This document shows positions 5,409-57,618 of a DNA stretch of 64,000 nt, piece by piece. The notes below the pieces were generated by a model, which saw nothing but the letters and a program-made list of their open reading frames with translations, ran no database searches and was not told where the DNA came from. The position numbers and the translations under genes were made by a program. Source of the stretch: an uncultured Thiomicrospira sp. (GTDB lineage Bacteria > Pseudomonadota > Gammaproteobacteria > CAKMZV01); assembly GCA_965195345.1 (NCBI GenBank), contig OZ239628.1, forward strand, positions 480,001 through 544,000. The letters run 5' to 3'. Positions within the stretch are counted from its first letter, which is position 1. Each line of letters opens with the position of its first letter.

Positions 5409-6659
5409 CTATGTTTGAGGGATTGTTTTACCATGCGGATCTTTGTCCCTTTGATTGAGCTCCGCTTCAAGCCTAGAAGCAATTTCAGGAGTAATAACGT
5501 GCTCAGCATCCTCAGCCATATGATGAACTTGTGTTTTATCAACGCCCGCTTTTTCTATTAAGTACTGTTCCCATAAGCGATGATGGCGTGTGAGGGCAGA
5601 TGCTTTAGCGAGACCTTGATCGGTCAATTCCCAATAGTTATCTTTCTGAATTAAGTCTCCAGCTGATGTGAGTTGTTTGGCGGTTGTAAATAATTTGTCG
5701 GCGGGGAAATCTCTCACAGTTAGTACTTGATTAAGAGCAAATTTTTTGAGACTATATCTTTCATTGAGGAGAAATCCTGCACGCAGTAAATGTTCTTCAA
5801 GTGTGCGTTTGTGTTGTATTTTTTTAGCCCTAATACGTGTTAAGATACCTCGAGGTGCAAATAGAGAAGATAAGATAAATAAGATGGTTAAACCCATTAC
5901 TATCCATGGTCCAGTCGGAAAGCGTGTTGCTTGGGTGGAAATGAAAATGCCGAAGCACACGCTGATGCTGCTACACACCAAAGCCATTAGTAAAAGAGGA
6001 AAGAGGCGGTGACACCATTGTCTTGCAGTAATAGCTGGAATCAGTAGTAAAGCAGACATGAGGATAACGCCAACGAGTTGGAGACCAACGACTATTACGG
6101 ATACCAATAATACTCCTAATAGCACATCTACGAATTTTGGAGATAATCCTGCATAAGTACTGAAACGACGATCAAAAGCGCATGCGCGCATGCGCTGATA
6201 CATAAAAGTTACTCCGATAATGCAAGCGCTTAATACTAAGGTGAGTATTAAGATATCTTCAGGCAGTATGGCTGCTGCTTGTCCAAAAAATAATTTATCA
6301 AGCCCTCCTTTTTCAGGTAAAGGCAGACGTTGTATTATTGATAAGATGAGTACGCCAAGTGAGAAGAAAAAAGATAAAACCATTGCTAAGGCTGAGTCTG
6401 GACGAATGTTCTTAGCTTTGATAAGCCAATCAAGGATGAAGTACCCGAGTAGTGCCGCAATAGTGCCTCCCCAAAAAGTAACTGAAAGGCGGTTTGTGTG
6501 CGTCAAGAGAAAAGCAACTAAAACACCAGGAAGGGCACAGTGTGCGAGGGCATCACCAATAAGTGAACGGTTGTTTATGAAAGAAAAACAACCAATAAGA
6601 GCTGCGCTTATCCCAAGGATGATGCCACCACTTAATGCCCATATCGTATTGATGTCCAT
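5409..6659 (-). CDS. Mn/Zn/Fe ABC permease (TroC/MntC-like) with C-terminal DtxR-like domain
   Basis: N-terminal SLIGDALAHCALPG permease motif; C-terminal RHHRLWEQYL...AEDAEH...DPHGKTIP DtxR metal-binding/dimerisation signature. Confidence 0.88.
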   Translation of the reverse strand: MDINTIWALSGGIILGISAALIGCFSFINNRSLIGDALAHCALPGVLVAFLLTHTNRLSVTFWGGTIAALLGYFILDWLIKAKNIRPDSALAMVLSFFFSLGVLILSIIQRLPLPEKGGLDKLFFGQAAAILPEDILILTLVLSACIIGVTFMYQRMRACAFDRRFSTYAGLSPKFVDVLLGVLLVSVIVVGLQLVGVILMSALLLIPAITARQWCHRLFPLLLMALVCSSISVCFGIFISTQATRFPTGPWIVMGLTILFILSSLFAPRGILTRIRAKKIQHKRTLEEHLLRAGFLLNERYSLKKFALNQVLTVRDFPADKLFTTAKQLTSAGDLIQKDNYWELTDQGLAKASALTRHHRLWEQYLIEKAGVDKTQVHHMAEDAEHVITPEIASRLEAELNQRDKDPHGKTIPQT

Positions 6660-6668
6660 GAGTTTTGT

Positions 6669-7415
6669 TTATATTTTCTCTTGAATCTCGCTCAGAAGAG
6701 GCAGAGAGTTACTGTACGTTTGGCGGATATTTTCCATAGTAAATGTTTCCTTTAGAGGTCCTTGTGCGATGATGCGCCGATTGAGTAGAAATACGTAGTC
6801 AAAGTATTCAGGGGTGCTATTTAAATTATGATGTACACACAACAGAGTAGCCCCTTCGCTTTGAATGATTCGAAGCTGATCAATTATGGCTTTCTCGCTT
6901 GCCATGTCAATGGCGGCAAAAGGTTCGTCCAATAGGTACAAACTGGCACGTTGAGCAATGGCGCGAGCAAGGAACATCCGTTGTTGTTGCCCTCCTGAAA
7001 GCTCACTAATATGTGCGTTCGCATATTCTACTAATGTTACTTTTTCTAATGCTTCCATTGCAATTTTTTTGTCTAACTTAGTGGGTCTTTGCCACCACTT
7101 TAGGTGGGGTAGTCTACCCATAAGAACGACTTCTTTTACAGTTATGGGAAAGTCCCAATCAACGTTGGATCTTTGTGGCATATAGGCAATAGTTTGCCTT
7201 TTTTCTTCGAGGGTTCCAGAAAAGAATCGAACGTCTCCAGACTCACACTCAGTTAGACCAAGTATTGCATTGATCAGAGTCGTTTTTCCAGCACCATTAG
7301 GACCAATAATTGCTGCTAATTTTTGTCTGGGAAGTTCGAGGTTTATTTCTTCCAAAACACGTTTTCCACGATAGCGCGTGTTTAATCCTTTGATATTCAG
7401 CGCTGGATAATTCAT
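6669..7415 (-). CDS. Metal ABC transporter ATP-binding protein (TroB/MntB-like)
   Basis: Walker A GPNGAGKT, signature LSGGQQQR, Walker B LLDEP. Confidence 0.92.
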   Translation of the reverse strand: MNYPALNIKGLNTRYRGKRVLEEINLELPRQKLAAIIGPNGAGKTTLINAILGLTECESGDVRFFSGTLEEKRQTIAYMPQRSNVDWDFPITVKEVVLMGRLPHLKWWQRPTKLDKKIAMEALEKVTLVEYANAHISELSGGQQQRMFLARAIAQRASLYLLDEPFAAIDMASEKAIIDQLRIIQSEGATLLCVHHNLNSTPEYFDYVFLLNRRIIAQGPLKETFTMENIRQTYSNSLPLLSEIQEKI

Positions 7416-8326: not shown

Positions 8327-8347
8327 CTATTCATCCACGCCTTGTCA

Positions 8348-9010
8348 ATGCAAAACGCAACAAAAGAAGATTATTTGAAGGTAATATTTAAGCTTTCGGA
8401 TGGAGAAGATAAAGCAGTAGCTACACAAGATATTGCTGCTAAATTAGGTATTTCATCTGCGGCGGTTACTTCAATGCTTAAAAAACTAGCAAAAGAAAAT
8501 TTAGTAAGTTACAAACCCTATTATGGAGTGCGGTTGTTGTTGGAAGGAAGAAAGGTTGCTGTTTCGACTGTGCGAAGACATCGTGTCATTGAGGAGTTTC
8601 TTGTTCGATTTTTACATATGGGGTGGGATGAAGTGGATGTAGAAGCCGAAGTGTTGGAGCATTGTATATCGGAGGACATTGTGCAACGCATGTGGAAAGT
8701 GCTTGGAGAACCTCAAACCGATCCGCACGGGTCTCCAATACCAGATGCTTCGGGGCAGTTCCATATTGAAGAAAGTGCTAGTGTCCCTTTAGTCCAGATT
8801 GATATTGCTGCTCTTTGTACTGTTGTGCGTATTAGAGGCGCTAGTCCTGAAGAGTTACGTTATCTCGAAAGTATTGGGCTGACGATAGGTTCTAAGTGTG
8901 AGCTTATAGACCGTGCACCGTTCAAAGGACCCATAATGGTAAAAACGAAAGTCAAGGTTTCTGCTTTGGATTACAGCTTTTGTGAGTCAATAATCGTTAA
9001 AAGAAATTGA
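8348..9010 (+). CDS. DtxR/MntR-family metal-dependent repressor with C-terminal FeoA/SH3 domain
   Basis: EDYLKVI, HTH, RRHRVIEEFL, AEVLEH, DPHGSPIP, YLESIGL...APFKGP. ATG 8348 or TTG 8342. Confidence 0.92.
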   Translation: MQNATKEDYLKVIFKLSDGEDKAVATQDIAAKLGISSAAVTSMLKKLAKENLVSYKPYYGVRLLLEGRKVAVSTVRRHRVIEEFLVRFLHMGWDEVDVEAEVLEHCISEDIVQRMWKVLGEPQTDPHGSPIPDASGQFHIEESASVPLVQIDIAALCTVVRIRGASPEELRYLESIGLTIGSKCELIDRAPFKGPIMVKTKVKVSALDYSFCESIIVKRN

Positions 9011-9837: not shown

Positions 9838-10602
9838 CTAATTGGTTATTGGAATTCCTAACACCATACCATCCTTCATGCCTTTAAGGAGTAGGGGAAT
9901 GATTTGAGTTTCTAATTCTGCGCTTGTTTTGTTAAAGTTTTCAGCTAACACTTCAATCGCTTGTTTCGTTGTCATATCAGGATTGTTCTTTATTAAATCC
10001 CAGAAAATAGCAGTGAATGAGTTGACAGCAATAAAGCAAACTTTGTTGCTATGATTGCGATAAAGAATAAGAAATGTTTCTGCTGGCTCAATTGAATCTG
10101 CATTTTTTGCAGTTATGTGTTGGACAGGGTATGTGTAATGTTCGATGAGCATAACAGAGTTAAGCAACAAAGGGCTGTTAAGAAGCTTTTCGTCATTATG
10201 AGAAATTAAATGTTCGGGGACTTCTGGGTCTTCATGTATCATCAAATACAGTTCAAGCCATTCGTATCGAGCTAATTGCTCAAAGAAGCCATGCACACCG
10301 TCTTGAGGATGCTTTGCTATAAAGTCAAGAAAAGCTTTGGGGATTTGTCGGAAGTATGGCGAATGGTTTTCATACGTGGAGAAGAATGCTCTAACCATTT
10401 CTCGAATTCTATTCTCACCATAAATGCTAGTAATTACGGGGAAGGTGTTGACAATAAAATTGACTTGATTGTTGAAAAAAAGATCTCGGTAGATAGAGAG
10501 CCTTCGATCTTCAAGGTTTTCTGGTGCGGGATTGTTTTCGGGGTCACGAATGTGTGCTGCAAAGTTGTATTGCAACTGTCGAAAGTCAGAAGTCTTCGTC
10601 AT
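9838..10602 (-). CDS. DUF2063 MNIO partner protein (HvfC/BufC-like)
   Basis: FAAHIRDP, RRLSIYRDLFFNN, SPYF...F..F and EQLARYEWLEL; overlaps the DUF692 stop. Confidence 0.88.
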   Translation of the reverse strand: MTKTSDFRQLQYNFAAHIRDPENNPAPENLEDRRLSIYRDLFFNNQVNFIVNTFPVITSIYGENRIREMVRAFFSTYENHSPYFRQIPKAFLDFIAKHPQDGVHGFFEQLARYEWLELYLMIHEDPEVPEHLISHNDEKLLNSPLLLNSVMLIEHYTYPVQHITAKNADSIEPAETFLILYRNHSNKVCFIAVNSFTAIFWDLIKNNPDMTTKQAIEVLAENFNKTSAELETQIIPLLLKGMKDGMVLGIPITN

Positions 10603-11474
10603 ACGTTTACAACAATAGGTTGGTCTGCCTGTAAGTGCTTTCTTTGCAAATCATTTATAACGTTTATTTCTTTGAGCAATGTTTCTAAATTAGGAATGTT
10701 GAAGTCGCGTTCAAGCAGTGTCGGATGTACTCCGAAAAGATCATATGCACTATCGAGTAGATCCCAAACGGGATCAATTACATCGGCGCCATGTGTATCA
10801 ACGATCAGATCTTCGGCCTCTTGGTAGTGTCCAGCAACATGGATGTAGGCGATGCGATCGCCATTGATTCCTTTGAGGAATTCAAGCCCATCGTAACGAT
10901 GATTTACTGAATTAACATAGATATTATTAACGTCTAACAGCATGAGGCAGTCGGCTTCTTCAAGAACGCCATTGATGAAGTCTATTTCTTTTATTTGCTG
11001 ACCAGGTGCTGCGTAATAAGAGACATTCTCGATGGCAATTTGACGCCCCATGATATCCTGTGCAACCCGAATGCGTGATGCCACGTGTTTTATGGCTTCT
11101 TCGGTGAATGGTATTGGCATTAAATCATAAAGATGCGCATTGTCAGTACAGAAACTTAAGTGTTCACTGAAAAAGTTCACTTTGTTTTTATCAAGAAATT
11201 TTGCCACGTCGGAAACAAATTTTTTGTCCAAAGGATTTGGTCCGCCAAGAGACATAGACAGTCCATGGCAAACAAACTGATAGTTTTCTGTAAACCAAGC
11301 AAATTGTTCGCCTAATCGCCCACCTATGTTCATCCAATTCTCAGGTGCTACTTCAAGAAATCCCACCCCTTTAGGCATATCTTTGCGCATTGGTCGAAGC
11401 ATTTCTTGACGCAAACCAAGTCCTGCGCCGTTGAGATTGGAAAGGGCTGAATTTTTATGTTGTTGTTTCTTCAT
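10599..11474 (-). CDS. DUF692 multinuclear non-heme iron oxidative enzyme (HvfB/BufB-like)
   Basis: GLGLR, EVAPENW, HGLSMSLG, SEHLS, ENVSYY, LDVNNIYVN, HVAGH, DTHG, LLERD. Confidence 0.95.
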   Translation of the reverse strand: MKKQQHKNSALSNLNGAGLGLRQEMLRPMRKDMPKGVGFLEVAPENWMNIGGRLGEQFAWFTENYQFVCHGLSMSLGGPNPLDKKFVSDVAKFLDKNKVNFFSEHLSFCTDNAHLYDLMPIPFTEEAIKHVASRIRVAQDIMGRQIAIENVSYYAAPGQQIKEIDFINGVLEEADCLMLLDVNNIYVNSVNHRYDGLEFLKGINGDRIAYIHVAGHYQEAEDLIVDTHGADVIDPVWDLLDSAYDLFGVHPTLLERDFNIPNLETLLKEINVINDLQRKHLQADQPIVVNV

Positions 11475-21659: not shown

Positions 21660-22850
21660 ATGTCAAAGGCAAAATTTGAGCGTACAAAACCCCACGTTAA
21701 TGTGGGAACAATAGGTCATGTTGATCACGGAAAAACAACGTTGACGGCGGCTCTGACGATTTTTTCTGCGAAAAAATTTGGTGGAGAATCGAAAGCTTAT
21801 GATCAGATTGATAACGCTCCTGAAGAGCGTGCAAGAGGTATAACGATTTCGACAGCACACGTGGAATATGAAACAGAAGCAAGACATTATGCTCATGTGG
21901 ATTGCCCAGGGCATGCTGACTACGTCAAGAACATGATTACTGGTGCCGCCCAAATGGATGGTGCTATATTGGTATGTTCAGCGGCTGATGGACCAATGCC
22001 CCAAACACGTGAACACATACTATTGGCTCGTCAAGTAGGTGTGCCATATATTATTGTTTATTTGAACAAAGCAGATATGGTTGATGATGAGGAGTTGTTG
22101 GAATTGGTAGAGATAGAGGTTCGTGAACTTTTATCGATCTATGAATTTCCAGGAGACGATATACCAGTGATAACCGGTTCGGCGTTAAAAGCTGTAGAAG
22201 GTGATGAATCAGAGATTGGTACACAGTCAATTCAAACATTGCTTGATGCACTGGATAGTTATATCCCTCAACCAGAACGTGCTATAGAGAAAGAATTTGT
22301 TATGCCTATAGAAGATGTTTTTTCTATACAAGGTCGTGGGACAGTGGTAACTGGACGTATAGAAAGCGGTGTTGTGAATGTAGGAGATGAGATTCAAATT
22401 ATAGGTATACGCGAAACTCAGACAACAACGGTTACTGGCGTTGAGATGTTTCGTAAGTTATTGGACAGAGGTGAGGCAGGTGATAATGTGGGTGTATTGT
22501 TGCGTGGAACAAAACGCGACGACGTAGAGCGTGGGCAGGTATTAGCAAAGCCTGGAGCGATTAATCCACATACGAAGTTTGAAGCCGAGGTTTATGTGTT
22601 GAGCAAAGAAGAAGGTGGACGTCATACACCATTTTTCTCAAACTACCGCCCTCAATTTTATTTTAGAACAACCGATGTTACTGGAGCAATTGAGTTACCT
22701 GGAGGTACCGAAATGGTAATGCCAGGTGATAATATTTCTATAGTAGTTGAATTAATAGCGCCAATTGCAATGAATGAAGGATTGCGATTCGCGATTCGTG
22801 AAGGTGGACGCACGGTTGGAGCTGGTGTTGTGAGTAAAATTATTTCATAA
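21660..22850 (+). CDS. tuf: Elongation factor Tu
   Basis: [27 protein letters not shown]. Confidence 0.99.
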
Positions 22851-22871
22851 ATATTTTTGTCAACTCACCAA

Positions 22872-22897
22872 AAAAAAGCCCCTTACGGGGCTTTTTT
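22872..22897 (+). terminator. Intrinsic terminator after tuf
   Basis: AAAAAAGCCCC-TTAC-GGGGCTTTTTT. Confidence 0.9.
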
Positions 22898-23184
22898 GTT
22901 TTCAAGCATAAAGTGATTTTGAAAAAAAAGTTGGGCTTTAAATACTGGGATGTGAAAATAATGAACGTTTAACTTGTAGACTGAACGTCACATTACAAAA
23001 GCGCATTGTATTATCCATGAGCTCACAAATTAGAACAAAACATGCATGCATACATAATTCTATTTGCTATTTTTTATAGCTTCAAGGTCCATGTTGGATT
23101 GCGTAACTTTTATCACCGTGAATGCAGTGAGCGTAGTCTGCTAATTAATGATATTGCTAATCAGCAAGTATTTGCTGGAGTTGG

Positions 23185-24189
23185 ATGTCAATGGTAGCGA
23201 TGTCTATTAGAGTAGCAGCGTTCGGTTGCTTACTTGTTCTTAGTCCATTATTTGCTGATGAAAAGATTTTTATTGATAGACAAACAGCAACTATTCTTTA
23301 CGACCCAACTTTTGAAGCAGAAGAAAAGAAACATGCTCGAAATTGGATCAAATTTGTGTTGCATTCTGCAACGCAAGTTTTTGGTGAATTACCGCAAGAT
23401 AGTATCAATGTAAAGTTGGAAAAGCATGGGGGAAATTATGGAATTACTAAAAGAGATGTTGACAATAACAGCAGCTTAAAATCTCAATTTAGGCGTGCTG
23501 GACCAGTACCTTGGGGTGAAGTTCGAAGGACCAATCCCGTGACAATTAAGTTGATTGTTAATCCTCTTGCGTATTCATGGAATGACATCCGTCGTGATTG
23601 GACGGCATACCATGAAGTAAGTCATTTGTTTATACCCTATGACGGGTGGTCAGGTCCACGATGGTTTATAGAAGGACTGGCGAGCTATTACCAAAATATA
23701 TTACAAGGACGATCGGGGCTAGTAAGCGAGAAGAGGATGTGGAATAAGCTTGTCGCAGGCTTTGTTCGTGGAGAGAAAGATGACCAGTTGGGACGCTATA
23801 ACCTTAATGTTTTAAGTAAGAATGTAAGGAATTTTCGAGCTTTTATGCGTGTTTATTGGAGTGGCGCTTTTTATTGGTTTAAAGCTGATGTGATCGTGCG
23901 GAGGGATAGTAATAATCAACAAAGTCTCGATTCCTTATTGGGGGAATTAAAAAGTTGTTGCCAACATAGAGAACTGAATGGACGTAATACAGCAAAAAAA
24001 CTCGATGAACTTTACGGAAAGGCATTATTTCTACCCCTCTTTAATTCGTTCCAGCAATTACATGCGATGCCAACATTTCGACCACTGCTCCGTTCACTAG
24101 GAATAATTGAAAGTTGGGGAGATGTTACATTACAAAACGATGCGCCATTGCTTGAAATTAGAAAAAGTATTTATCAAAAAAGGTCATGA
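23185..24189 (+). CDS. Exported gluzincin-type (M61/M1-like) metallopeptidase
   Basis: Signal peptide; HEVSH followed by WFIEGLASYY; RVYWSGA. Confidence 0.7.
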   Translation: MSMVAMSIRVAAFGCLLVLSPLFADEKIFIDRQTATILYDPTFEAEEKKHARNWIKFVLHSATQVFGELPQDSINVKLEKHGGNYGITKRDVDNNSSLKSQFRRAGPVPWGEVRRTNPVTIKLIVNPLAYSWNDIRRDWTAYHEVSHLFIPYDGWSGPRWFIEGLASYYQNILQGRSGLVSEKRMWNKLVAGFVRGEKDDQLGRYNLNVLSKNVRNFRAFMRVYWSGAFYWFKADVIVRRDSNNQQSLDSLLGELKSCCQHRELNGRNTAKKLDELYGKALFLPLFNSFQQLHAMPTFRPLLRSLGIIESWGDVTLQNDAPLLEIRKSIYQKRS

Positions 24190-49615: not shown

Positions 49616-52600
49616 TTGATGGTTTTTAAAATGAAAAGATTAAACGCAGGCAGCATTCACACTAAACAAATTCAATGGTTTTTTATTGTGCTTTCTTATG
49701 CCCTTTGCTTTTTCATTGCTCCTCTTTCTTATGCAGGAGAGCCTGATCGTTCCGATAATACAAATCAAACTTCTGCTTTAGGGGAATCTTCAAGAGAGGA
49801 AGATTTGCTTCCTGAGTTAATTATTCGATTTAAAGATGGCGTAAATGGAAGCAGTGTTGTTCAACAACTAGCCCAGACAATGAACATTAGCAATCTCGAA
49901 CATAATAAGATGCGTGTTTCTTTTATCAATGCGCAGGTTGTTAAGATGGACAGTCAGCGTATGCAGGATTTTATTGACAAAATATCTGAAAACAAAGATG
50001 TTTTATCTATTGAACGCAATCAAAAATATAAAGCAAAGTTAACTGTTAATGATCCCCGCGTCGGTGAGCAATGGGGATTGACCAATATGAACGCTTTTGG
50101 AGGCTGGGATATTACAACCGGCACAGCTACTCAGTATGTTGGTGTTATTGATACAGGAATTGATTACAATCATTCTGATTTATCCAGTGTGGTGTGGAGC
50201 AATCCACGGGAAACTGCTGGTGATGGGATTGACAACGATAATAATGGTTGGATTGATGATATTCATGGATTAAATGTTGTAACTACTAATCCGAGTAATG
50301 AGGGAGACCCGTTAGATGATAATAATCATGGGACACACGTGACGGGTGTGATAGCTGCTGCGACAAATAATAGTATAGGAATAGCAGGGTTGAACCATAA
50401 TACGAAAATCATAGCATGTAAGTTTTTAGATAATAATGGCAGCGGATCTCTTATAGGCGCCATGATATGTATGGATTATTTTTTAAATCTAAAAAGAAGT
50501 GGTGTTAATGTCGTTGCCACAAACAACTCATGGGGTGGCGGCGGAGCACACTCTGACTTGATGTTTGCTGCAATAAAAGCCCATGGAGACAATAATATTG
50601 CTTTTATAGCAGCTGCAGGTAATTCATCGAACGATAATGATCAAGCACCAGCATATCCTGCAAGTTATAGGCTAAAAAATGTACTATCGGTGGCTGCTAT
50701 TGAAGAGCAAAATACATTAGCTTCGTTTTCAAACTTTGGACAGCGCAGAGTACATATTGGTGCTCCGGGAGTTAGTGTGCTATCAACGATTCGTAATAAT
50801 GGGTATGCCAGCTATAGAGGAACTTCTATGGCATCTCCTCACGTGGCAGGATTGTACAGTCTTGTTCTTTCTCAAAACCCATCATTATCTCCTGAGCAAG
50901 CTATAGCGCGTCTCTTGGCGGGTGCACAACCAACGTCTGATTTGTTAGGGAAAACAGTAACAGGAGCTCGTGCATCTGCTTTGAATAATGTAAACGGAGG
51001 AGCCTTAGGTTGTAATGGAAGGCATAGTTATCAAAAGCTAATTAATCCAGTTGCCGCCATTGGAGAAAATGTCATAGTTCCTGTTGGAGTTGCAGTAAAT
51101 ATAGAGTACGCTTATTTTACTTGTGATGCTGGAAGCAAACCTTCCACAGTCACTGCATATTTAGGAGATAGGGAATTACAGTTATTGGACAATGGCATAG
51201 GTGCTGACGTAGAGCAAGGGGATGGCGTTTACAGCAGTAGTATTCAGTATACAACAGAGGTCGTTGAAAGTTGGACATTCCCCAATGGTGAGGTTTTATC
51301 AATTGAAGTACAAGGATCTGATTATAGATTGGTTGAGCGGTCTTTTAATTGGATAGATATAGATCCATACAGACCTAATAATTTACTTTTAGGCGATGAT
51401 CAATCGACTACTATTCCGCTTCCATTTGATGTTGATTTTGCCTCTTCTCAAAATTTCAGATCGTTAATAGTAAACAGTAATGGTTTAATTTCAGGGAGTG
51501 ATCTAAGCAACTTTTTATACATAAATGGAAATTTGCCTCATTCTAGGTTGAGTAATTTTACTATCGCAGCTTATTGGGATGACTTAAGACCCTCAGCAGC
51601 TGCTAATGTTTATACCGCAACAATAGGAAGTTCGGTGGGTAACCGTCAATTTATTATTGAATGGCGTAATGTGCCTTTGTTCTTAGATTCATCTACTCTT
51701 TTTCATTTTCAAGTTGTTTTTTTTGAAGCAAGTTCAGATGTGCATTTGAATTATAGAAATGTTTCGGAAAATTCCCCTCTAGGGGGTGGACGTTCTTCGA
51801 CTATAGGTTATCAAAAAAGTCCAAGACTTGCTCAAACATGGTCTGTCAATACACCATCGATTAGAAATAATACAACGCTTATATTGAAGAGTGACGCGAA
51901 TGATTTCTCTATTTCTTTGAATTCCACCGGCGTATTAAAGGTGGGAGAAGAGGTGACGTTTTTTGGGAATGTTCAAAATGCTAGTGGTTCTGTTAATATC
52001 CAATTAGATCTTGGTGATGGCAACATAGTGCAACGTTTACAAAATCCTTTTACAGTCACCCATAGATACTCCACTCCAGGTAACTTTATTGTTCAGGCTG
52101 AGGCCATCGATTTGTTAGGTTCTAGAGAAGCGTCTATTCTAAGTGTAAGTATAGCTGATTTATCTGTTGATGAAAAAATTGAACGTGCTCGAACTGAGCT
52201 TTTAAATAGTATTTATGCGGCTCCAGAAAATTTTGGATTGATAAGTTCTGTTACGCATCAAGCAGCTGTTGCTGAAAGTATTGATCGTGCTCGAACTGAT
52301 CTTTTGAGCAGTATTTATGCCAATCCAGAAGACTATGGTTTGGTAAGTTCTGTTACCTATCAAGCAGTACTTGATCAGCTAGAAGCTATACCAGCTTCAG
52401 AAATCACCTCTAATTCTATTCAACAACTGAGTAGTGGTTGGCATTTACTTGGTTCTGATTCAAGAATGAGTGATATGAGTGTTTTTGATAGTGCTTTGGC
52501 AGTGTGGGTGTATGATGCTTCTAACGAAAGATTTAATGTCTACTCGTCTTTTCCTGTCGTCCGAGAAAGCCTTTTAGAACAAGGATATACATTAGTCAAC

Positions 52601-52642
52601 ACTATCAATAAAAACCAAGGTTTCTGGGTTTATAAAAGATGA
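49616..52642 (+). CDS. Secreted S8 (subtilisin-like) serine protease with PKD-like and repeat C-terminal domains
   Basis: Catalytic triad in VIDTG, HGTHV and GTSMASP; oxyanion AAGN; DNG..AD...DGVYS segment; DLGDG...HRYSTPG PKD-like segment. Confidence 0.9.
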   Translation: MMVFKMKRLNAGSIHTKQIQWFFIVLSYALCFFIAPLSYAGEPDRSDNTNQTSALGESSREEDLLPELIIRFKDGVNGSSVVQQLAQTMNISNLEHNKMRVSFINAQVVKMDSQRMQDFIDKISENKDVLSIERNQKYKAKLTVNDPRVGEQWGLTNMNAFGGWDITTGTATQYVGVIDTGIDYNHSDLSSVVWSNPRETAGDGIDNDNNGWIDDIHGLNVVTTNPSNEGDPLDDNNHGTHVTGVIAAATNNSIGIAGLNHNTKIIACKFLDNNGSGSLIGAMICMDYFLNLKRSGVNVVATNNSWGGGGAHSDLMFAAIKAHGDNNIAFIAAAGNSSNDNDQAPAYPASYRLKNVLSVAAIEEQNTLASFSNFGQRRVHIGAPGVSVLSTIRNNGYASYRGTSMASPHVAGLYSLVLSQNPSLSPEQAIARLLAGAQPTSDLLGKTVTGARASALNNVNGGALGCNGRHSYQKLINPVAAIGENVIVPVGVAVNIEYAYFTCDAGSKPSTVTAYLGDRELQLLDNGIGADVEQGDGVYSSSIQYTTEVVESWTFPNGEVLSIEVQGSDYRLVERSFNWIDIDPYRPNNLLLGDDQSTTIPLPFDVDFASSQNFRSLIVNSNGLISGSDLSNFLYINGNLPHSRLSNFTIAAYWDDLRPSAAANVYTATIGSSVGNRQFIIEWRNVPLFLDSSTLFHFQVVFFEASSDVHLNYRNVSENSPLGGGRSSTIGYQKSPRLAQTWSVNTPSIRNNTTLILKSDANDFSISLNSTGVLKVGEEVTFFGNVQNASGSVNIQLDLGDGNIVQRLQNPFTVTHRYSTPGNFIVQAEAIDLLGSREASILSVSIADLSVDEKIERARTELLNSIYAAPENFGLISSVTHQAAVAESIDRARTDLLSSIYANPEDYGLVSSVTYQAVLDQLEAIPASEITSNSIQQLSSGWHLLGSDSRMSDMSVFDSALAVWVYDASNERFNVYSSFPVVRESLLEQGYTLVNTINKNQGFWVYKR
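52178..52367 (+). repeat. Two diverged 102-bp (34-aa) coding repeats in the S8 protease
   Basis: IERARTELLNSIYAAPENFGLISSVTHQA and IDRARTDLLSSIYANPEDYGLVSSVTYQA. Confidence 0.9.
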
Positions 52643-52885: not shown

Positions 52886-54220
52886 CTACCAAGATAAAGA
52901 GCCGCTTGATTGATACTCAGTAACTCTCGTTTCAAAGAAGTTTTTTTCCTTTTTTAAGTCAATAACTTCACTCATCCAAGGCATTGGGTTCGTTGCTCCA
53001 GGAAACTGCTCTGCTATGCCTAACTGTTTGCATCGACGATTGGCAATAAAATGTAAATAACTCTCTATGGTTTTGGAATTTAGTCCTAATATTCCATTGG
53101 GCATGGTATCTTTAGCATAATCAACTTCCAATTCAATGGCCTCGTTCAGCATCTTGAGAATTTCTTTTTCAAACTCAGCATTCCAAAGCCCAGGATTTTC
53201 ATTGCGTATTTGGTTAATAGCATCAATGCCAAAATTAAAGTGAACCGACTCATCACGCATGATATATTGATATTGTTCAGCTATACCAACCATCTTGTTA
53301 CGTCTTCCAAGCGATAAAACTTGAGCAAAACCAGTATAGAACCACAGCGATTCCATGCAGACGTATAAAGCAAATAAATTGCGCGTAAAACGTCTTTTAT
53401 TTGCAAGAGTATCGGTATTAAATGCACCATCCTCCATTTCTTTTGTATGTTGAAATGCCCATGCGGCTTTATCATGCACCGATGGGATTTGTGTATACAT
53501 GCTGAAAATTTCACTCTGATTCAAGCCAAGGCTTTCAACGATGTATTGAAAAGTATGAGTATGAAGCGCCTCTTCAAAAGCTTGACGCAACAAATATTGA
53601 CGACATTCTGGATTGCTTAAATGCCGATAGACAGAGAAAATAATATTATTGGCAACTAAGGACTCGCTTGAAGAGAAAAAGCCGAGATTGCGCTTAATCA
53701 TCAATCGTTCATCTTCCGTTAGCCCGTTAGGAGAACGCCATAATTCAATGTCTTTAGTCATTGATACCTCGGTTGGCATCCAATGATTGGCACATCCTGC
53801 AAGATATTTATCCCATGCCCAGTGGTACTTGATAGGTACTAATTGATTTAGATCCGCTCTAGAATTTAGCATGGATTTCTCATCTATCCTTACATGAGAT
53901 TTTCCCGAACTTTTCATTTCTATAGGAGAGTCTGGTTTTTCAGTAGTACTGGTGGGAGACTGAAGCGCGCTTGAGTCAACATTTATTTGAGCCTCTTTAT
54001 TTCCACTAGTGTCATCCTCATCAAGAACAATATTCAACATTTGGTCAAGTAGATTACTGTCTTTCAATGGGGCAGATTGAATTTGCTCATCCGCTTTTTC
54101 GTATTCTGGCGTGTCTCCTTTCATTGCCTGATCAATTAAATCGTGAAACTTAGAAGCATTTAGCATAGAACCGTTTTCTTCCTCATTTGATATTATATTG
54201 TTGTCCCATTTTTTCATCAT
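52886..54220 (-). CDS. nrdB: Ribonucleotide reductase beta subunit with class Ic (Mn/Fe) signature and long acidic N-terminal extension
   Basis: [48 protein letters not shown]. Confidence 0.95.
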
Positions 54221-54226
54221 ATTCTC

Positions 54227-57055
54227 CTATTGACAGGCTTCACAGTCTGGGTCCAGTATGCTGCATACTTTTGGTGCGTTATCCAATGTAACACCATTTA
54301 GTTTGCCGTCATTTTCTAAAGTGCTTTTCTCAATAGATGTTGCACCCATTGAGCGTAAGTAATAAGTTGTCTTTAATCCTTTAACCCAAGCCAATTGATA
54401 GGTTTCATTCAATTTTTTACCATCTACGCCAGCAATGTAGATATTCAATGACTGTGCTTGATCAATCCACTTCTGACGTCGTGAACCACATTCAATTAAC
54501 CAAGAAGGCTTTATTTCGAAGGCAGTGGCATAGATGTTTTTTAAATACTCGGGTACTCGGTCAATTTTTGAAATCTCACCATCGTAAAATTTAAGATCAT
54601 TCACCATAGAATCATCCCACAGCCCTTCTTTTTTCAAATCGTTAACCATCATTGGATTGATGATGGTGAAATCACCAGAAAGATTTGATTTGACGTAAAG
54701 ATTCTTGTAGGTTGGGTCTATTGAAGGGCTGACTCCACAAATATTGGCTATGGTTGCTGTAGGAGCTATGGCCATGGTATTTGAGTTACGCATACCAACA
54801 GTTTTTACTCGTTCGCGCAAAGCGTTCCAATCCATTGTTTGACTATTATCTTGTTTTAACATGCCATTACGAGCTTGTCTAAGCATTTCAATGGAGTCAA
54901 TCGGCAGTACTCCTTTTGACCAGAGCGAGCCTTCATAACTTGAATATACGCCTCGCTCTTCAGCTAAATTAGAAGAAGCCTTTATTGCAAAATAACTGAC
55001 AGCTTCCATAGAAGAGTCTGAGAAATCGACGGCTTCTTCACTGTTATACGGAATACGCAACTTATATAATGTGTCGTGAAATCCCATTATGCCCATGCCT
55101 ACTGGTCTGTGACGCAAATTAGATACTTCAGCTTTTTTCACGCTGTAGTAGTTGTATTCAATCACATTATCAAGCATGCGCATTGCAGTATTAATGGTGC
55201 GTTCTAATTTGGCGTGGTCAATCTTTCCATCCTCAGTGATATGCTGAGTTAGATTTATACTACCAAGGTTGCAAACTGCAATTTCTTCGGCGTTTGTATT
55301 GAGGGTAATTTCTGTACATAAGTTGGAAGAATGAACGACACCAGCATGTTGTTGAGGAGAGCGAATATTACATGGATCTTTGAAAGTAATCCAAGGATGT
55401 CCCGTTTCAAAAAGCATCATTAATATACGCCGCCATAAATCTTCTGCTATGACTGTTTTGTGTGAAATTTCATTTCTTTCAGCCATAGCTTCATATTGAC
55501 AATACCGTGCTTCAAATTCCTTACCGTATAGGTCGTGCAAATCTGGGGCATCACTGGGTGAAAATAACGTCCATGATTTATTATTCATAACACGCTGCAT
55601 GAATAAATCAGGTATCCAATTGGCGGTGTTCATGTCATGAGTACGTCGACGATCGTCTCCAGTGTTTTTTCTTAAATCCAAAAACTCCTCTATATCGAGA
55701 TGCCACGTTTCTAAGTAAGCACAAACGGCGCCTTTACGCTTGCCTCCTTGGTTAACAGCAACGGCTGTATCATTAGCTACTTTTAAAAATGGCACAACGC
55801 CCTGTGATTTGCCGTTTGTACCTTTTATTCGCGAGCCCATGGCTCGTACTGCTGTCCAATCATTACCAAGTCCGCCTGCAAATTTTGACAGCAAAGCATT
55901 TTCCTTTATGCCTTCGTATATGCCGTCAAGGTCGTCGCCAATGGTCGTTAGATAGCACGAAGAAAGTTGAGGCTTCAAAGTACCTGAGTTAAACAGTGTT
56001 GGGGTAGAGCTCATAAAGTCAAAGGATGAAAGCAAACGATAGAACTCAATTGCCTTAGCAGTTTTCTGTTCTTCATTAATAGCAAGCCCCATGGATACGC
56101 GCATAAAAAATGCTTGTGGCAATTCAATGCGAGTGTCTTTACTATGTATAAAGTAGCGGTCGTATAAAGTCTGTAATCCTAAGTATGTGAATTGAAAGTC
56201 CCGTTCTGGGAGGAGGGCTTTGCCCAACACCTCAAGATCGAAATCTTCGGCTAGTCTAGGATCAAGTAATTCAAGTGCTACGGCTTTTTGAATATACTTT
56301 GGGAATGATTGAACGTAATGTACATCCATTGTTGATTGATCGATGTATACAAGTTCCTCATATAAATAACTTAGAGTTTCATGACGGATATTGTCAAGCA
56401 GTAAACGAGCCGCTACGAATGAATAGTTAGGGTCTGTCTCTATTAACGTTCGAGCACTCATAATCATTGCTAAAGACACTTCATCTTCTCGCATACCGTT
56501 GTATAGATTACGTAGCGTTTCATCAATGATTTTTTGTGGCTCTACGTCAGATAAATCAGCACATGCTTCACTAATTATGTGTTTGACACGTGTGATATCA
56601 AGCGGTTTTTCGGTGCCGTCCTTCATATGGACAGTTATATTTATTTCATCTTGACTCTCGTGTAATTGTTCAAGGTTTTTAAGGTTTCGTTCTTGAGCAT
56701 GTTGCTCGCGATAAAGGACGTAAGCTCTCGCTACTTTGTGCTCACCGCTGCGCATTAATGATAGTTCAACCTGATCTTGTATATCTTCTATACTAATGGG
56801 TGTGCCGGGAGCATTTCTGCGCGTTACTGCTGAACAAACTTGAAAGGTTAGCGTATTGATTATTTCTTTTACGCTTTGAGTAGAGTCGTTGGAAATTCCA
56901 TTAATTGCTTTGAAAGCCTTTGCCATGGCTACTGCGATTTTGCTAGGGTCAAACGAAGAAGTTTCGCCGTTTCTTCGCATTACCTTGTGCTTACTCCAAC
57001 TTGATAACTGCTCGGTGTCGATGGGTGCGGGGGATGGATTGATAATTTGGATCAT
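54227..57055 (-). CDS. nrdA: Class I ribonucleotide reductase alpha subunit with two ATP-cone domains
   Basis: Cones begin VMRRNGE and VHMKDGT; STPTLFN, SNLCTEI, KTTYYLR, C-terminal CEAC. Confidence 0.97.
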   Translation of the reverse strand: MIQIINPSPAPIDTEQLSSWSKHKVMRRNGETSSFDPSKIAVAMAKAFKAINGISNDSTQSVKEIINTLTFQVCSAVTRRNAPGTPISIEDIQDQVELSLMRSGEHKVARAYVLYREQHAQERNLKNLEQLHESQDEINITVHMKDGTEKPLDITRVKHIISEACADLSDVEPQKIIDETLRNLYNGMREDEVSLAMIMSARTLIETDPNYSFVAARLLLDNIRHETLSYLYEELVYIDQSTMDVHYVQSFPKYIQKAVALELLDPRLAEDFDLEVLGKALLPERDFQFTYLGLQTLYDRYFIHSKDTRIELPQAFFMRVSMGLAINEEQKTAKAIEFYRLLSSFDFMSSTPTLFNSGTLKPQLSSCYLTTIGDDLDGIYEGIKENALLSKFAGGLGNDWTAVRAMGSRIKGTNGKSQGVVPFLKVANDTAVAVNQGGKRKGAVCAYLETWHLDIEEFLDLRKNTGDDRRRTHDMNTANWIPDLFMQRVMNNKSWTLFSPSDAPDLHDLYGKEFEARYCQYEAMAERNEISHKTVIAEDLWRRILMMLFETGHPWITFKDPCNIRSPQQHAGVVHSSNLCTEITLNTNAEEIAVCNLGSINLTQHITEDGKIDHAKLERTINTAMRMLDNVIEYNYYSVKKAEVSNLRHRPVGMGIMGFHDTLYKLRIPYNSEEAVDFSDSSMEAVSYFAIKASSNLAEERGVYSSYEGSLWSKGVLPIDSIEMLRQARNGMLKQDNSQTMDWNALRERVKTVGMRNSNTMAIAPTATIANICGVSPSIDPTYKNLYVKSNLSGDFTIINPMMVNDLKKEGLWDDSMVNDLKFYDGEISKIDRVPEYLKNIYATAFEIKPSWLIECGSRRQKWIDQAQSLNIYIAGVDGKKLNETYQLAWVKGLKTTYYLRSMGATSIEKSTLENDGKLNGVTLDNAPKVCSILDPDCEACQ

Positions 57056-57174: not shown

Positions 57175-57222
57175 ATACTACATATTGTGGTTTGTTGTTA
57201 AAAAAAATACTAAATGTTGTAG
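57175..57222. promoter_or_regulatory. Tandem NrdR boxes
   Basis: ATACTACATATTGTGG (57175-90) and ATACTAAATGTTGTAG (57207-22) fit acaCwAtATaTwGtg. They are 32 bp apart, upstream of nrdA and downstream of a minus-strand TTGACA at 57260-55. Confidence 0.85.
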
Positions 57223-57618
57223 ATCAGCGCATATTATGCATCATAATGGTGGTATGTCAAGCACTGTTTTAACAGATTGTTTACGAAGCGCTATTTACCA
57301 GTAAAAAATAAATAAATATTTTTTTACTGGCTTTTTTGCATTCTGCAGAAGTCGGTGGAAAAGGTTGTTAATATGTATGGGAGGGTGAGAATTTCATATG
57401 AATAACCTCTTACCGTATAGTAAGTGAAATGGCTTGTATGGATTATCAAAAAGAGGAGTTGCTCAATGTAACTCGTGCCAATTAATAACCCAACGAGCGC
57501 TTGTTCCTACTGAATAAAATACTTTTAATGGAAGTTTTTTTCAAATCGGCACGCCGAGGCGCACGCGTGTCCCAGAAATTTTATGGATTAGGGGTCGGAT
57601 GTGGTTTTGAAATACAGC

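Follow-up and report, generated by a model that had tools for sequence, protein, structure and literature searches.

A class Ic-type ribonucleotide reductase small subunit is the only R2 homologue encoded in five genomes of a gammaproteobacterial order

Organization of the nrdA-nrdB locus

The window, i.e. the whole stretch of 64,000 nucleotides that was analyzed, carries the two subunit genes of a ribonucleotide reductase (RNR) side by side on its minus strand. The upstream gene, nrdA (54227..57055, minus strand), encodes a large subunit of 942 aa, which scored 1633 bits against the NCBIfam model NF005544 (cut-off 965). Its domains comprise two ATP-cone stretches (PF03477), an all-alpha domain (PF00317) and a barrel domain (PF02867), and the sequence displays the motifs NLCTE, TTYYLRS and a C-terminal CEAC. 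When the two putative ATP-cone segments were aligned with each other, BLASTP gave a non-significant E value of 0.11; the count of two cones rests on the two stretches delimited by Pfam.

The downstream gene, nrdB (52886..54220, minus strand), encodes a small subunit of 444 aa, assigned to the class Ic type (R2c, or NrdBzc) from its PF00268, NF005550 and PDB matches. NrdB scored 290 bits against PF00268 in Pfam (cut-off 33.6) and 611.7 bits against the NCBIfam equivalog NF005550 (cut-off 309), and thus belongs to the RNR small-chain family of ferritin-like R2 proteins. The name of the best NCBIfam model, NF005550, goes no further than "ribonucleotide-diphosphate reductase subunit beta", so that a plain nrdB label does mask the subclass, as the preliminary description of this DNA had warned.

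The two genes are closely spaced. nrdB lies 6 nt downstream of nrdA, the stop codon TAG being followed by GAGAAT and then by the nrdB ATG, and the sequence TAGGAG, 6 nt before this ATG, probably serves as a Shine-Dalgarno sequence. Upstream of nrdA, a promoter-like site, TTGACA-16-CATAAT (57233..57260, minus strand), matches the consensus at 11 of 12 positions and is the best of the region, in which the total of such sites was not above that of shuffled sequences. Past this site the 14-nt sequence ACAAYATKTAGTAT occurs twice, at 57207-57220 and at 57175-57188 (minus strand), with a spacing of 32 nt. Two matches to this repeat were found in the window against 0.18 expected, and one of 100 shuffles reached two. 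They are candidate NrdR boxes, which we take to resemble tandem NrdR boxes in both consensus and spacing; the same genome also encodes NrdR, at positions 22810-23250 of its contig. On the minus strand past nrdB, no terminator-like site was found.

The first 105 residues of NrdB (53906..54220, minus strand) form an acidic, poorly conserved N-terminal extension, with 22 D/E against 9 K/R, in which no Pfam domain was found. Within the family of the window NrdB, the extension varies in length from about 60 to 105 residues and is variable in sequence, the sole common element being a short N/D-x-L..L-L motif. No stop codon interrupts the nrdB reading frame between its start and the end of nrdA, and translation of the extension is therefore probable.

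Metal ligands and radical site of NrdB

NrdB was searched against all PDB chains with phmmer, and residue matches were counted along the printed HMMER alignment. The best match was 6y2n (E 2.4e-161, 540 bits), aligned without gaps to residues 109-444. It was followed by 1syy, 4d8f and 2ani with E values of about 1e-124 (4.2e-124 for 1syy, which we take to be the Chlamydia trachomatis R2c). Class Ia, Ib and Id chains matched with E values of 1e-39 and weaker; among them 5olk, 6sf4 and 6cwo, presumably class Id, reached only 1e-11 to 1e-16. The chain 6y2n is the R2 subunit of Saccharopolyspora erythraea according to PMC7467353, and "SYY" and 4M1I are cited as structures of the C. trachomatis R2c in PMC4118035.

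The preliminary description had drawn attention to a glutamate and a phenylalanine 38 residues apart. Counting from the start at 54220 confirmed both codons and their distance: the first residue of FFSSSESLV is 181, which places Glu186 at 53663..53665, and that of EEALHTHTF is 216, which places Phe224 at 53549..53551 (both minus strand). The alignment with the C. trachomatis protein that it had called for bore out the correspondence, with Glu186 opposite E89 and Phe224 opposite F127 of 1syy. Glu186 thus stands at the site-1 N-terminal metal ligand, which is Asp in classes Ia and Ib, and Phe224 takes the place of the radical tyrosine. At the latter column 2ani differs from 1syy by having Tyr, consistent with an F127Y variant.

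The remaining positions are located between 53240 and 53572 (minus strand). The ligands E217, H220, E290, E324 and H327 lie opposite E120, H123, E193, E227 and H230 of 1syy, and the same stretch holds the second-sphere residues E216 and D323 as well as Y319, the equivalent of C. trachomatis Y222. Of 108 aligned frames, 105 cover these columns, which were invariant in all 105; the three frames outside this count were two partial ones and one mis-picked. Two further residues were matched on the same alignment: Trp147 (53780..53782, minus strand; HWMPTE starts at 146), equivalent to C. trachomatis W51 and an electron-relay residue, and Tyr436 in the C-terminal tail (52913..52915, minus strand; TEYQSS starts at 434), equivalent to Y338 and a radical-transfer tyrosine at the subunit interface. 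The roles of W147, Y319 and Y436 are assumed here from the literature on the C. trachomatis R2c. The Glu186/Phe224 pair is no chance or sequencing oddity, because it is conserved in all five genomes of the order.

Assignment of NrdB to class Ic

PMC6370689 places NrdBzc, or subclass Ic, in the NrdBz group of RNRdb and describes it as having Phe, Leu or Val at the site of Escherichia coli Tyr122, and its Table 4 gives a first coordination sphere of E-E-H-E-E-H and a second sphere of E and D. For NrdBza (class Ia) the same source gives D as first ligand and a Tyr in the radical position, and Glu rather than Asp is also named as the N-terminal ligand of R2c in PMC4118035. In the window NrdB, F224 occupies the Tyr122 site, and E186, E217, H220, E290, E324 and H327 reproduce the first sphere. 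The translation places E216 (EEALH) and D323 (RDESVH) in the second sphere, their identification with positions 7 and 8 of Table 4 in PMC6370689 being our reading of the E. coli equivalents given there. The C-terminal Tyr is present as Y436, the counterpart of C. trachomatis Y338, and the partner NrdA is encoded 6 nt upstream.

Class Ia is characterized by an Asp first ligand and a radical Tyr, where the window NrdB has Glu186 and Phe224, and was therefore rejected. Class Id (NrdBi) has C or S at second-sphere position 7 according to Table 4 of PMC6370689; it was rejected as well, with Glu216 at this position. The assignment to class Ic made in the preliminary description thus held for each feature compared, namely the radical-site Phe, the Glu first ligand, the E-E-H-E-E-H and E/D spheres, the solved relatives, the Tyr of the C-terminal tail and the neighboring nrdA. 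On every sequence criterion tested, class Ic (R2c/NrdBzc) is the supported class for this protein.

Comparison with known R2 proteins

The C. trachomatis R2c (1syy, 4d8f, 4m1i) has in common with the window NrdB the six metal ligands, the radical-site Phe and the W51/Y222/Y338 equivalents, in an alignment with few gaps across NrdB residues 107-444 (E 4e-124). Like the window NrdB, it pairs with an NrdA bearing multiple ATP cones. However, the chlamydial protein (346 aa) is devoid of the 105-residue acidic N-terminal extension, and the window NrdA, with two ATP-cone stretches, differs from the chlamydial NrdA, which we take to have three. The hosts also differ, the window NrdB belonging to a gammaproteobacterium.

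The R2 of S. erythraea (6y2n) is identical to the window NrdB in its ligand and radical-site motifs. Its Mn/Fe site has reportedly been characterized by Kutin et al. in 2016 and 2019. The protein is actinobacterial, and in our trees the Pseudonocardiaceae fall inside an alphaproteobacterial, acidobacterial and actinobacterial clade of sequences with the Glu/Phe pair (hereafter E/F), whereas the window family falls outside it. Finally, the NrdBza proteins (class Ia) found in most of the sampled gammaproteobacteria, e.g. at the Legionella and Coxiellaceae loci, display 57-66% core identity to the window NrdB. They share its operon partner and its five remaining ligands, but carry Asp and Tyr (D/Y) in place of Glu186 and Phe224, and F/V in place of W293/T296.

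Occurrence of the E/F pair and number of RNRs per genome

The genome to which the window belongs (1.92 Mb in one contig, 99.7% complete) gave one match to PF00268 and one to PF02867, a model that also covers class II RNR, and no match to PF13597 (class III RNR). In the collection searched, this order comprises five genomes, in three genera and 1.8-2.1 Mb in size; the four others each displayed the same pattern, with one PF00268 match, one PF02867 match and none to PF13597. With a single RNR per genome, the E/F protein must be the working subunit. The E/F pair was found in the NrdB of all five genomes, at 70-83% core identity, and the trait thus dates from the origin of the order.

A sample of 41 genomes from the same class was also searched with NrdB. 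It matched 28 of them and left 13 without a match. Among the 23 matched genomes outside the order, 22 carried D/Y and one, a partial sequence, displayed the Y only. In public species-representative genomes, 593 stretches encoded relatives, of which the best 80 were analyzed, a selection biased towards the query's own type; E/F was present in 60 of these 80 and D/Y in 20. By record title, the E/F carriers among these best 80 of 593 included many Alphaproteobacteria (Bradyrhizobium, Afipia, Ancylobacter, Kaistia, Phyllobacterium and others), Acidobacteriota and Pseudonocardiaceae, together with one Chlamydiae MAG, one Planctomycetaceae MAG and, within the Gammaproteobacteria, Halothiobacillus, Guyparkeria and Salinisphaera.

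These results agree with the literature. PMC4118035 mentions more than 150 R2 sequences lacking the Tyr in GenBank by 2014 and, according to PMC3824934, Lundin et al. (2010) placed gammaproteobacterial, alphaproteobacterial and actinobacterial sequences beside the chlamydial R2c. The rarity implied by the preliminary description was therefore overstated, as Alphaproteobacteria, Acidobacteriota and Pseudonocardiaceae commonly carry E/F, and other Gammaproteobacteria have it too. The signature is not a rarity in the class, nor is it new there.

Phylogeny of NrdB

Trees were calculated from 335 core columns, the two trait columns being left out. The quick tree comprised 105 rows, after two partial rows and one mis-picked frame had been dropped. 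In this tree the window family formed a clade (starred support of 99) outside both the main E/F clade of 54 rows (starred, 95) and a gamma- and betaproteobacterial D/Y clade of 36 rows (starred, 97), with an unresolved backbone. The NrdBs of the same class clustered with Legionella, Coxiellaceae and Methylococcaceae sequences. Two E/F changes were needed by the backbone polytomy, of which the starred branches forced only one; a quick tree of 55 rows forced two.

A more careful maximum-likelihood tree was built from 55 representatives chosen among the 105 rows. The window family was recovered with 100/100 support among the E/F sequences, and all E/F rows lay on one side of a branch with 39/92 support, present in 43% of 200 bootstrap trees. 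The bootstrap was not fully settled, and the outgroup branch was about 6 changes per column long, so that the root is unreliable. On a weak backbone, the window family was placed just outside a group formed by the Chlamydiota/Planctomycetota representatives (L056 and L069) and the Pseudonocardiaceae. These are the nearest sampled relatives of the C. trachomatis and S. erythraea proteins, which are not themselves rows of the tree.

A phylogeny within NrdBz had been proposed as a check on the class assignment, and it placed NrdB among the sequences lacking the Tyr: the nearest solved chains are of R2c type and the window family sits on the E/F side, but the support of the branch concerned is weak (39/92, 43%). 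We claim neither a single origin of E/F, nor switching between Ia and Ic, nor an independent origin in the lineage of the window. Beyond the trait columns, only three columns discriminated between E/F and D/Y with a threshold of 90%, too small a number to settle the origin of E/F. The window family is E/F-like at two of them, W293 and T296, next to the ligand E290, and D/Y-like at the third, L389.

A further observation concerned four loci of the same class, L026-L029 (genomes G006, G014, G016 and G008). The C-terminal part of their NrdA is 64-69% identical to that of the window, whereas the NrdB encoded next to it reaches only 38-40% and represents another D/Y type (YLTTSDILAM, EESLHTWTY). 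From these identities, the histories of the alpha and beta subunits are discordant. A concatenated NrdA + NrdB tree was dropped because of this disagreement.

Metal supply locus

Searches of the genome for Nramp (MntH) and ZIP transporters gave no match. The window contains a metal ABC importer operon on its minus strand, made up of a ZnuA-family binding protein with no other such member in the genome (7412-8305), an ABC ATPase (6669-7415) and a permease (5409-6659) in which PF00950 (residues 5-267) is followed by a C-terminal DtxR-type metal-binding domain (PF02742, residues 346-415). A DtxR/MntR-type regulator with a FeoA domain is encoded divergently beside this operon (8342-9010, plus strand). 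The NCBIfam matches of the importer were all below their cut-offs and mixed Zn (AztC) with Mn/Fe models (EfaA, MntC, MntA); the top score of the binding protein, 183 bits, was to the zinc model AztC and below every curated cut-off. With no Nramp or ZIP transporter found and a zinc model as the best for the binding protein, a dedicated Mn importer is not established.

The fused permease recalls the architecture of the chlamydial YtgC-YtgR, a permease-repressor fusion described in PMC5599777. Full-length matches to it occurred in four of the order's five genomes, against none among 36 others sampled from the class. Adjoining the metal-transport locus (9838-11474, minus strand), we also observed an HvfB-type MNIO RiPP maturase (419 bits) and its HvfC partner (222 bits).

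Proposed cofactor and alternative readings

We consider it highly probable that nrdA-nrdB (52886-57055, minus strand) constitutes the sole RNR of this organism and that its beta subunit is of class Ic, with a Mn(IV)/Fe(III) cluster replacing the tyrosyl radical. The metal identity and oxidation states of this cofactor are what we infer for the window NrdB by analogy with the C. trachomatis enzyme. Site 1 (E186, E217, H220) would bind Mn and site 2 (E290, E324, H327) would bind Fe, and the Mn/Fe site would react with O2, or H2O2, to form the Mn(IV)/Fe(III) cluster. With Phe224 in the radical position, this cluster would act as the stored oxidant in the place of the tyrosyl radical. The oxidizing equivalent would then be passed to Tyr436 in the C-terminal tail, to the YY pair of NrdA and to the NLCTE cysteine, where nucleotide reduction would start. 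This scheme is that of the chlamydial enzyme, as reviewed in PMC8463856.

The importer with Mn/Fe- and Zn-type similarity and the DtxR/MntR-type regulator were counted in favor of the Mn/Fe reading, and the placement of the window family outside the Chlamydiota/Planctomycetota and Pseudonocardiaceae group was counted against it. As for stress tolerance, PMC4118035 reports both stability towards H2O2 and activation by it as in vitro results for the C. trachomatis R2c, and presents a lower sensitivity of R2c to NO as a hypothesis. The window NrdB may likewise tolerate peroxide and NO; this property, too, is one that we infer.

The class Ic scaffold could also run on a di-iron (Fe/Fe) high-valent cluster, or exist mostly in mis-metallated forms. 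Indeed, the C. trachomatis scaffold does mis-metallate and metal identity cannot be assigned from the ligands alone (PMC8463856, PMC4118035), and the passage of PMC4118035 on this question states that, as of 2014, Mn/Fe had been shown in vivo for no R2c. The failure of the genome search to find an Nramp or ZIP importer points the same way. On the other hand, a poorly active form would be costly where the enzyme is the sole RNR, as it is throughout the order (five of five genomes), and an ABC metal importer is present together with its DtxR/MntR-type regulator. We therefore hold a di-iron or mis-metallated enzyme to be improbable.

Two other readings bear on the protein itself. A functional class Ia enzyme might place its stable radical on a different tyrosine close to the cluster, the candidate being Tyr226 (THTFQY), close in sequence at two residues past Phe224. 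However, an equivalent tyrosine exists in the C. trachomatis R2c (THTFLY in 1syy), a protein described as lacking a tyrosyl radical in PMC3824934, PMC8463856 and PMC4118035, and the D/Y relatives have QY at this site in 14 of 23 cases and QH or LT in the other nine. As Tyr226 occurs in both types, it does not distinguish class Ia from Ic, and we give a radical on this residue very little credence. R2-like oxidases (R2lox) likewise have Glu as first ligand and no radical Tyr (PMC4118035), so that NrdB could be such an oxidase, or else an inactive partner subunit, rather than a catalytic RNR subunit. Against this, the five R2lox NCBIfam models scored only 24-42 bits for cut-offs of 194-346 (best, 42 against 194), and NrdB has the C-terminal Tyr tail that, according to PMC3824934, R2c keeps and R2lox lacks. 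Moreover, nrdB is translationally adjacent to nrdA and encodes the only R2 homologue of the genome. The oxidase or inactive-subunit reading is thus effectively refuted, and a class Ic subunit with a Mn/Fe cluster is retained as the preferred reading.

Significance and genomic neighborhood

The RNR subclass sets which metals are needed for making DNA and how a cell responds to radical scavengers such as hydroxyurea and NO. In itself, the window NrdB is an ordinary addition to a family known from hundreds of bacteria and brings no new chemistry; that a whole small order depends on the class Ic enzyme alone adds modest weight. The organisms of this order would be natural test cases for two questions discussed in PMC4118035, namely whether the metal content of R2c is indeed Mn/Fe in vivo, and how Mn and Fe are balanced in a cell with class Ic as its sole RNR. 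More speculatively, this small deep-branching order of five species may have relied for a long time on class Ic alone, with an R2c forming its own old lineage apart from the chlamydial and the alphaproteobacterial/actinobacterial ones. The acidic lineage-specific tail and the permease-DtxR fusion might then reflect a "chlamydia-like" Mn/Fe economy, either convergent or anciently exchanged. We regard this scenario as tentative and, on balance, doubtful.

The genes flanking nrdA-nrdB are housekeeping ones: infA, a subtilisin-like protease gene, ilvC, ilvH and ilvI. The protease (1008 aa; 49616-52642, plus strand), convergent with nrdB, has a signal-like N-terminus, and its C-terminal region contains a tandem duplicated segment (IERARTELLNSIYA.../IDRARTDLLSSIYA...).
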